Positions 24,221-24,766 of a stretch of DNA of 64,000 bases are shown one piece after another; the first letter of the stretch is position 1; every line of letters starts with the position of its first letter. The position numbers were made by a program, and so were the translations under genes. Where the stretch lies: sequence record PV018827; one strand, written 5' to 3'. The DNA is from Escherichia phage KM01. Under the pieces are notes generated by a model, which was given only the letters and a program-made list of their open reading frames with translations, did no database searches and had not been told where the DNA came from.

Positions 24221-24279
24221 ATTTTAATTTCCTTATTTAATTTGAAAGATTGTTGCTCTCTTTGAGCGGTTATGTATAG

Positions 24280-24288
24280 TATACATTA
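24280..24288 (-). promoter_or_regulatory. TAATGTATA promoter-like motif (minus orientation)
   Basis: tatacatta on plus strand at 24280-24288 within the 416-bp intergenic region 24221-24636. Confidence 0.35.
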
Positions 24289-24351
24289 CGCTTATACCGA
24301 TAAGAGTACTATATAATATAAGTATCTTTGGTAGTAGATATATCACACTAG

Positions 24352-24369
24352 TAATGTATATACTGTATA
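24352..24369 (+). promoter_or_regulatory. TAATGTATA-TACTGTATA tandem promoter-like motif
   Basis: TAATGTATATACTGTATAG; second half recurs upstream of the adhesin-like gene (59299-59307, minus). Confidence 0.3.
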
Positions 24370-24461
24370 GCTGATAAGGTTATTGCAGGCTTGTATATTG
24401 GGCAATTCAAAGAATCCCTTGCAAGTACCGAAGGGCAGGAGCCACCTGCGAGATAAAAATA

Positions 24462-24527
24462 GAGAATTAAGGAATCCTTGATTTAGGTTGTAGGGACTCC
24501 TAGGGACTTTGATTCTCTATTTAAAAG
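24462..24527. repeat. 10-bp inverted repeat (AATAGAGAAT / ATTCTCTATT) enclosing ~46 bp
   Basis: Perfect 10-bp arms at 24462-24471 and 24518-24527; inner sequence contains short direct repeats (AGGGACT x2). Confidence 0.4.
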
Positions 24528-24766
24528 AATATTAATTACTTATTACCTAAATAATTAACTAACTTACTTAAACCAAATTCAATAAGAATAGATAAAAAGA
24601 CTATTCCTAAGAAAGCTAAAAAGTAAAGGATATAAGTTACCATTCAAGTAAACCTTTAAAGTTAGATTGTTCTACTATCCTCTGATAACGAAGATTAGAA
24701 TCAGCTTGTTTCTTTAACATCTCATTATATTGATCTCTGATAGAATCTTTATGTACTACAGGTTCT

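Follow-up and report, generated by a model that had tools for sequence, protein, structure and literature searches.

What is transcribed from the spacer upstream of gene 40 in Escherichia phage KM01 (sequence record PV018827), and in which direction? We analyzed 64,000 nt of this DNA (the window; position 1 is its first letter). From position 24221 onwards, next to a gene described as encoding a protein like the single-stranded DNA-binding proteins (SSB-like), the window carries the motif TAATGTATA in both orientations. In our reading, to which we assign a probability of roughly 65%, the spacer contains back-to-back promoters of the phage sigma factor gp36, the rightward one of which is predicted to make a stable, structured non-coding RNA in the middle and late phases of infection. 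Judged from the sequence, this is probably an overlooked small RNA gene of ~155 nt, present in every relative examined.

The 2-kb stretch around the region shows 95-99% identity to dozens of Kuravirus genomes (phiEco32, SU10, NJ01 and relatives), which identifies the source as a Kuravirus, i.e. a phiEco32-like coliphage; these relatives are E. coli podophages with elongated heads. The sequence tAATGTAtA is the promoter element of the holoenzyme composed of E. coli core RNA polymerase (RNAP) and phiEco32 gp36, and transcription starts 6-8 nt downstream of it (PMC8948821, PMC4331800, PMC4281155, PMC12276001). Six gp36 promoters have been reported: P6, P13 and P26 (late), and P40, P58 and P68 (middle) (PMC8948821, text and Table S3; PMC4331800; PMC4281155 with Table S2).

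Perfect copies of TAATGTATA occur five times in the window, against 0.61 expected, and none of 100 shuffled sequences reached this number. Two copies lie within the spacer, at 24280-24288 (minus strand) and 24352-24360 (plus strand), exactly where a preliminary description of the locus had placed them. Two others can be assigned by spacing to P26 (13558, plus strand) and P58 (31004, minus strand), while AAATGTATA at 35541 (minus strand) is P68. The fifth perfect copy, at 63505-63513 (minus strand) in the early-gene region, has no TGGTAG -35 block, does not figure in the published promoter list and is probably a chance copy.

The minus-strand copy in the spacer belongs to a promoter that has been described before. 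Here and below, fractions of invariant columns refer to 21 genomes from three genera.

24280-24288, minus strand: TAATGTATA, the -10-type element of P40, a gp36 middle promoter already published (Table S3 of PMC8948821)
24221-24273, minus strand: P40 transcript leader, with a predicted +1 at A24273 (numbering from P68), the Shine-Dalgarno sequence AAGGAAA and 74% invariant columns

The assignment to P40 follows from the SU10 entry "between CDS37 and CDS38" in Table S2, since its sequence, aagcgtaatgtatactatacataaccgctcaaagagagcaa, is identical to the reverse complement of window positions 24250-24292. For P40, a transcript 5′ end 6-8 nt past the element, dependence on gp36 and stimulation by gp79 in vitro have been published (cited via PMC4281155 and PMC8948821).

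The plus-strand copy is preceded by a second conserved block.

24329-24339, plus strand: -35 block TGGTAGTAGAT, with G24330 at -37 and A24333 at -34
24352-24362, plus strand: -10-type element TAATGTATATA, in which AATGTA occupies -14 to -9

The resulting layout, TGGTAGTAGAT-N12-TAATGTATATA, is matched in the window by that of P68, TGGTAGTAGAT-N12-AAATGTATATA, whose block lies at 35562-35572 (minus strand); these are the only two occurrences of the 11-mer TGGTAGTAGAT in 64 kb. A structure from 2025, obtained by cryo-electron microscopy (cryo-EM), shows P68 in the open complex with gp79/gp36: the bases -14A, -13A, -12T and -11G are read by the N-terminal domain of gp36, whereas -37G and the T that faces -34A are read by its C-terminal domain; mutation of P68 bases contacted by gp36 compromises or abolishes transcription (PMC12276001). 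All six of the bases read by gp36 are present in the plus-strand copy, with AATG at 24353-24356. When the numbering of P68 is transferred to it, the predicted +1 is A24367. The two sites thus share an identical -35 block, equal spacing to wAATGTATATA and a predicted hairpin at the transcript start. Unlike P68, the plus-strand copy is oriented against all of its neighboring genes and has no ORF (open reading frame) downstream.

The -35 block is matched only in part by P40, P58 and P26 (TAGTAC, TAGCAG and TAAGAC, respectively; P40 itself has -34A, but A instead of G at -37), and the copy at 63505 does not match it. The restriction of the complete TGGTAGTAGAT to P68 and the plus-strand site suggests that gp36 promoters fall into two classes of strength or regulation. 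A scan of the spacer for sigma-70 promoters returned weak sigma-70-like matches only (9/12).

We therefore predict that the plus-strand copy is a second, rightward gp36 promoter, a near twin of P68 that is apparently unreported. The published set of six gp36 promoters, as listed in papers that followed the original mapping study, does not include it, and one of the published searches (PMC4331800) would miss it because only the strand of the downstream gene was scanned. P40 and the motif had been described before; neither the plus-strand promoter nor the conserved structured element presented below appears to have been reported or annotated; a search of the literature for an antisense RNA, non-coding RNA or replication origin in phiEco32 or Kuravirus found nothing relevant.

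Comparison of the 21 genomes revealed that the -10 block of this promoter consists entirely (100%) of invariant columns and the -35 block of 91%, compared with 0% for the 12-nt spacer between them and 8% for the 39 nt that separate the two promoters. This bipartite footprint is the classic pattern of a promoter under purifying selection. The divergent promoter-like motifs noted earlier are thus borne out, one as the published P40 and the other as a site with the full geometry of P68. A TACTGTATA "variant" of the motif that had also been listed is present at 24361-24369 (plus strand); it covers positions -6 to +3 of the plus-strand promoter and is neither a separate motif nor conserved, being peculiar to this phage, and relatives carry TATTGTATA, TATGGTATA or TAAGGTAGA in its place.

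The best-conserved part of the spacer begins at the predicted start site and extends from 24367 to 24522. On the plus strand, it is composed of the following parts.

24367-24383, plus strand: P1, a 5′ hairpin beginning at the predicted +1 (AUAGCU GAUAA GGUUAU)
24383-24387, plus strand: invariant pentamer UUGCA following P1
24388-24427, plus strand: variable central domain, here the "standard" cassette, replaced by three other unrelated cassettes in relatives
24435-24449, plus strand: hairpin P3 (GCAGG-AGCCA-CCUGC), invariant except for C/A in the loop (AGMCA) and a change in contig L093
24450-24460, plus strand: invariant A-rich linker GAGAUAAAAAU, the complement of which is the U5 tract that follows the minus-strand hairpin
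24457-24522, plus strand: long hairpin P4, containing the inverted repeat and both TAGGGACU repeats (24491-24498 and 24501-24508)
24461-24472 and 24507-24518, plus strand: 12-bp core of P4, AGAGAAUUAAGG paired with CUUUGAUUCUCU, including 2 G·U pairs
24523-24535, no strand assigned: AT-rich tail after P4, where homology between lineages ends

P1 provides evidence for an RNA on the plus strand. Eleven distinct sequence versions of the hairpin were found, and all of them form 5/5 canonical pairs (55/55 in total) through multiple compensatory changes: UA, CG, GC or UG at pair 2, GC, GU or UA at pair 4, and CG, UA or AU at pair 5. Examples are AUAGCU/GGUUAU, AUAGCU/AGCUAU, AUAGAU/UUCUAU, AGAGUUA/UAACUCU, AUCUCU/AGAGGU, ACAUC/GAUGU and ACAGU/ACUGU. 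Every version starts exactly at the predicted +1. Four versions contain G·U pairs; read on the minus strand, these would turn into A·C mismatches, a kind of mismatch that is never seen on the plus strand. The G·U pairs in P1, in the hairpin of the type-3 cassette and in the P4 core fit the plus strand only.

Four unrelated cassettes occupy the central domain: (i) the "standard" one of the window, (ii) "alt", carried by 12 records, among them MN05, ECBP2 and the myPSH2311 group, (iii) type 3 (contigs L093, L094 and L097), and (iv) type 4 (contig L100). Each folds into its own hairpin or hairpins, and in type 3 two compensatory pairs distinguish L093 from L094. In P3, the L093 version (GCUGG/CCAGC) contains one compensatory change, from A-U to U-A. 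A long-range helix, UUGCAGG/CCUGCGA, appears in many single-sequence minimum free energy folds; we rejected it because L093 breaks this helix while compensating P3. No conserved pairing partner was found for the UUGCA pentamer, and the linker is invariant in the form GAUAAAAAU.

The core of P4 is kept in 13/13 variants of the 3′ module, with a single change of A-U to G·U (in XT18), and the indels observed are located in its apical loop, in a bulge or at a terminal wobble pair. The outer AAAU/AUUU pairs, which make the DNA repeat look "perfect", are not kept across variants. The 10-nt inverted repeat reported earlier, AATAGAGAAT/ATTCTCTATT, is real; its coordinates had been given as 24462-24527 and have to be moved 4-6 nt leftward, to 24458-24467 and 24512-24521, and at 93% the repeat extends to 24457-24470 and 24509-24522. 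The internal direct repeat, TAGGGACT, is present as described, in two copies.

The 3′ module (the 3′ 95 nt) has 89% invariant columns, as compared with 79, 88 and 30% at codon positions 1, 2 and 3 of gene 40. It is present in 98/98 related phage-collection records, in none of which it is annotated. More diverged copies were recovered from Logan/ENA assemblies by means of gp40 homologs (L092, L093, L094, L097, L098 and L100; gp40 71-82% identical). All six loci retain P40 and a plus-strand promoter of the form TGGTAG-N17/18-AATG(T/A)A, and five of them (L093, L094, L097, L098 and L100) have the same downstream architecture, the contig of L092 ending just after P1. The 3′ modules of these contigs are close to that of the window (mean column identity 95%; A3, all 13 variants). 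In L092 (positions 1-202; gp40 76% identical), the plus-strand promoter reads TGGAAGTAG...GAATGAA, and P1 (ACAGU/ACUGU) is followed directly by a U run.

Phages with gp40 of <=70% identity carry a different element at the corresponding place. Four such contigs, with gp40 homologs of 63-70% (L031-L033, ~1700-2500, and L103, 1010-1203), are without TAATGTATA and without the RNA element; they share another conserved, repeat-rich element of ~70 nt, GCATCTAGCAAAGCTAGCATATCAAAGCTAAGCTAAGCTATATGC, which may be an analogous structured element. A scan of metagenomes with the promoter pattern yielded Kuravirus contigs and chance matches only, and the pattern scan of IMG/VR yielded five contigs, mostly matching known genomes of the phiEco32 group in length. 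A further variation was seen in the group of myPSH2311 (L019, ~1075-1225), ES17 and EcK-vB, where ~140 bp are inserted between P40 and the plus-strand promoter; this insertion contains a possible minus-strand ORF of ~47 aa, the start of which overlaps the -35 block, there TGGTAGTATAT.

The element is always linked to gene 40, while the gene on its other side is exchanged between lineages: in Paul, XT18, Bas86, LAMP and ECBP2, the 35-aa ORF found in the window is replaced by other sequence or by a phosphoesterase gene. The break in homology right after P4 (window 24523-24643; L011-L018) marks a recombination boundary at the conserved element.

No coding potential was detected. The plus strand contains no ATG or GTG in 24367-24540, and the sole frame, which opens with TTG (24383-24481), is disrupted in relatives by 1-nt indels and by whole-segment swaps of the cassette; we therefore reject the hidden small ORFs that had been suggested. 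The base composition also had to be described anew. The spacer had been characterized as a 416-bp AT-rich intergenic region, of which the right-hand ~100 nt in fact belong to an ORF (the phi32_41 homolog), so that the actual spacer measures ~315 bp (24221-24535). Its flanks are indeed AT-rich (73% AT in the promoter block and 80% in 24523-24640); the conserved core is not, with ~47-59% AT (about 47% in 24400-24460), and is G-rich on the plus strand (GC skew +0.22). Rfam scans (22000-27000, and a permissive scan of 24340-24560) assigned the element to no family, and no hit approached a gathering score, the best being mir-3045 (E = 0.32), with which it shares a hairpin shape only.

According to our preferred reading, both promoters would be stimulated by gp79, by analogy with P68. 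The leftward one, P40, would provide the monocistronic mRNA of the OB-fold, SSB-like gene 40. The rightward one would start at A24367 and yield a non-coding RNA of ~150-160 nt, in which P1 at +1 is followed by UUGCA, the swappable central domain, P3, the A-rich linker and P4. We place the 3′ end at P4 because no good terminator is present on the plus strand; the short U run could act as a weak terminator, or Rho could end transcription further downstream, with subsequent trimming back to P4. The promoter layout and its conservation, the lack of coding potential and the covariation in P1 are established from the sequences; beyond these, the transcript would accumulate in middle and late infection and act as RNA, its near-invariant 3′ module (P3, linker and P4) binding a conserved partner and its cassette domain setting the specificity. 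On the minus strand, the hairpin and the U5 tract behind it probably also reduce the read-through that reaches the promoter pair from the middle operon upstream, and such use of both strands may in part be the reason for the conservation of the 3′ module.

Several observations weigh against this reading. P4 and the greater part of P3 vary too little for covariation to be tested, and the score of the 3′ module, which has one compensatory pair, was reached by 40/500 shuffles. Folding z-scores are equal on the two strands (-2.45 vs -2.51), though the plus strand is the more stable in 21/22 sequences, and for this reason folding energy does not decide the strand. A terminator scan of 24221-24640 revealed no intrinsic terminator on either strand. 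Targets were also sought: the 164-nt RNA has no match in 5,426 E. coli genomes, in a search that is blind to seeds shorter than ~20 nt; comparison with the window by blastn-short returned chance 9-12-mers only, apart from the -35 block of P68; and the RNAduplex energy with the leader of gene 40 is unexceptional (-28.9 kcal/mol vs -25.1 +/- 4.0 for shuffles). The extreme conservation of loops and linker could reflect a constraint on the DNA or on the minus strand. Finally, a start at the plus-strand promoter may have been seen in the original mapping, or the promoter may have proved silent when tested there.

A constraint of this kind is the essence of the first alternative, in which the conserved element acts mainly on the minus strand or as DNA, as a bidirectional terminator or insulator that ends the upstream middle operon, the plus-strand promoter serving for interference or producing a by-product RNA. 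Read on the minus strand, the hairpin has the invariant AUUUUUAU after it, the homology between lineages ends exactly after the hairpin, as at a module boundary, minus-strand folding scores are as good as those of the plus strand, and use of both strands would account for the near-invariance. We nevertheless consider this explanation unlikely. The terminator scan found none in the region. Where an intrinsic terminator would have a GC-rich stem and a loop of 3-8 nt before its U tract, P4 is AU-rich at its base and encloses a large interior (44 nt within an AU-rich stem, as read on the minus strand); its tail is U3 on the plus strand, where just 2-4 U precede an A run, and U5 on the other strand. 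The diverged loci keep only 7 symmetric pairs, as opposed to the G·U-containing plus-strand core of 12 bp, which persists in every variant. Moreover, P1, UUGCA, the cassette and P3 lie beyond any terminator and yet are constrained, the G·U pairs of P1 being mismatches on the minus strand, and the insertion of the myPSH2311 group, located downstream on that strand, holds a possible ORF that would need read-through.

The second alternative, a transcription-primed replication origin of the T7/T4 type, would explain why a plus-strand promoter without a downstream gene should face against the whole middle cluster: its G-rich transcript would form an R-loop or primer at the AT-rich stretch, from which the phage DNA polymerase takes over. 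The location is suggestive, in the replication module beside the SSB-like gene and ~3 kb from the DNA polymerase gene, and so is the composition, as the transcribed part (GC skew +0.22), in which GGG runs occur, gives way to a stretch of 118 nt with 80% AT; furthermore, no origin has been reported for the phiEco32 group in the papers searched. The cumulative GC skew, in contrast, tracks gene orientation and changes only at ~18.5 kb, with no inflection at 24.4 kb. An origin of the T7/T4 type has no need of a 150-nt RNA that carries cassette domains and a covarying 5′ hairpin. The AT-rich stretch is not conserved in sequence and simply represents the swappable gene that comes next, or a 3′ untranslated region (UTR), and no iterons or DnaA-type boxes were recognized. 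This reading seems to us improbable, though together with the bidirectional terminator it is one of the two principal rivals.

A third possibility is that a phage or host DNA-binding protein reads the TAGGGACT repeats and the palindromes within the inverted repeat (AAGGAATCCTT and CCTAGG) as an operator or iterons, and thereby controls P40. The two exact 8-mers lie 10 bp apart and change jointly to AGGACT in one lineage, and conservation is extreme, loops included. They cover neither promoter, however, since they sit upstream of P40 by >200 bp and 125-140 bp past the plus-strand start; TAGGGACT is found nowhere else in the window, two copies being the chance expectation; and the covariation of P1 and the conserved promoter are left unexplained. 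We found no support for the operator or regulatory switch that had been proposed for the region; the inverted repeat is the base of a long hairpin within the conserved structured element and not a palindromic protein site between the promoters, and we regard control of this type as very unlikely.

The weakest alternative is a type I toxin-antitoxin-like pair, in which the 35-aa ORF (24536-24643, minus strand) would have its partner in the plus-strand RNA that converges on it. It is suggested by the hydrophobic peptide and by the predicted overlap of the RNA with the 3′ UTR of the ORF, an arrangement resembling that of bsrG/SR4, and is largely refuted by Paul, XT18, Bas86, LAMP, ECBP2, L093 and L094, in which the ORF is missing and the RNA element is unchanged.

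If the rightward RNA is made, two functions are conceivable. It might represent a new modular family of phage regulatory RNAs acting in trans (for instance as a sponge or decoy that occupies a host defence or RNA-binding factor), or else the origin primer RNA of the phiEco32 group; we offer these as tentative ideas. Under the modular-family proposal, P1 would be a 5′ protective hairpin, the 3′ module would dock on a conserved phage or host factor, and the cassette would have been exchanged at least 4 times, a combination that is, taken as a whole, just as speculative. A cis-antisense or type I toxin-antitoxin role is disfavored, because the neighboring gene is swapped and homology breaks off right after P4.

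The genes that flank the region are all on the minus strand and are part of the "middle" cluster.

21269-21916, minus strand: gene of the phage sigma factor gp36
23435-23452, minus strand: intrinsic terminator after gene 40, a 7-bp stem with 5 GC pairs followed by TTTTTCGTTG
23474-24220, minus strand: gene 40 homolog (phi32_40), encoding an OB-fold, SSB-like protein
24536-24643, minus strand: small ORF, phi32_41 homolog (PHROG 24970), 35 aa, hydrophobic, present in some lineages only and outside the conserved element
27594-29438, minus strand: DNA polymerase gene, ~3 kb from the element

As a canonical terminator directly follows gene 40, this gene forms a self-contained, monocistronic P40 unit. 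Its product has a conserved acidic C-terminal tail ending in ...DDNDSPF; searches of Pfam and PHROG gave no function, and the PDB contained no sequence match. An AlphaFold model built with 27 aligned homologs (predicted local distance difference test score, pLDDT, 82) shows an OB fold, whereas the single-sequence AlphaFold2 model (pLDDT 36) was uninformative. The modelled fold and the acidic tail ending in PF lend moderate support to the "SSB-like" label.

Just downstream of gene 40, an HNH homing-endonuclease gene is present in some genomes and absent from others (WFI101126, L001, 3076-3489; SU10; NJ01; L100, 1970-2392), and an HNH-like ORF occurs in the window itself (22590-23048, minus strand). 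A scan for tRNA and tmRNA genes found nothing within the region; elsewhere in the window, a tRNA-Arg gene (anticodon TCT) lies at 54574-54649 (minus strand), as reported for SU10, SU7 and relatives.

PhiEco32 serves as a model of how host RNAP is taken over by a sigma factor of the phage (gp36) acting with a co-factor (gp79). The six mapped gp36 promoters all face genes; a seventh, if true, would add a non-coding product to this programme, and the plus-strand promoter would lend itself readily to testing the -35 contacts that cryo-EM has revealed. An RNA that has no Rfam relative and is more conserved than the adjoining protein gene would be a candidate regulatory or anti-host RNA, or a replication origin, in phages that are now common in therapy collections. 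The range of the element is confined to one phage subfamily, and within this group it is universally conserved. If the RNA is not made, the finding shrinks to the known P40 and a conserved hairpin.

Among known systems, the put sites of HK022 (cited in PMC12276001) are comparable in that stem-loops are transcribed directly after a phage promoter. The element described here differs from put in having no downstream genes with terminators to override, and there is no sequence or Rfam similarity between the two.

There are also parallels with phage replication origins. The primary origin of T7 consists of the promoters phi1.1A/B and an AT-rich region, and ori(uvsY) and ori(34) of T4 consist of a middle promoter and an unwinding element. 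The spacer resembles them in that an AT-rich stretch comes after a phage-specific promoter located in the replication module, although this stretch is not conserved and belongs to the next gene; in contrast, the T7 and T4 origins lack a conserved structured RNA, and the element described here lacks a skew signal.

The element also resembles oop of lambda and sar of P22, where a promoter facing the 3′ end of the upstream operon, with no ORF, gives rise to a small structured RNA. The oop and sar RNAs are ~70 nt long, have strong terminators and act by overlap with a defined target gene. The element of the phiEco32-like phages differs from both in its length of ~155 nt and in the combination of a constant scaffold with a swappable central domain. 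Because the neighbor that it overlaps varies between lineages, a cis-antisense target is unlikely in this case.

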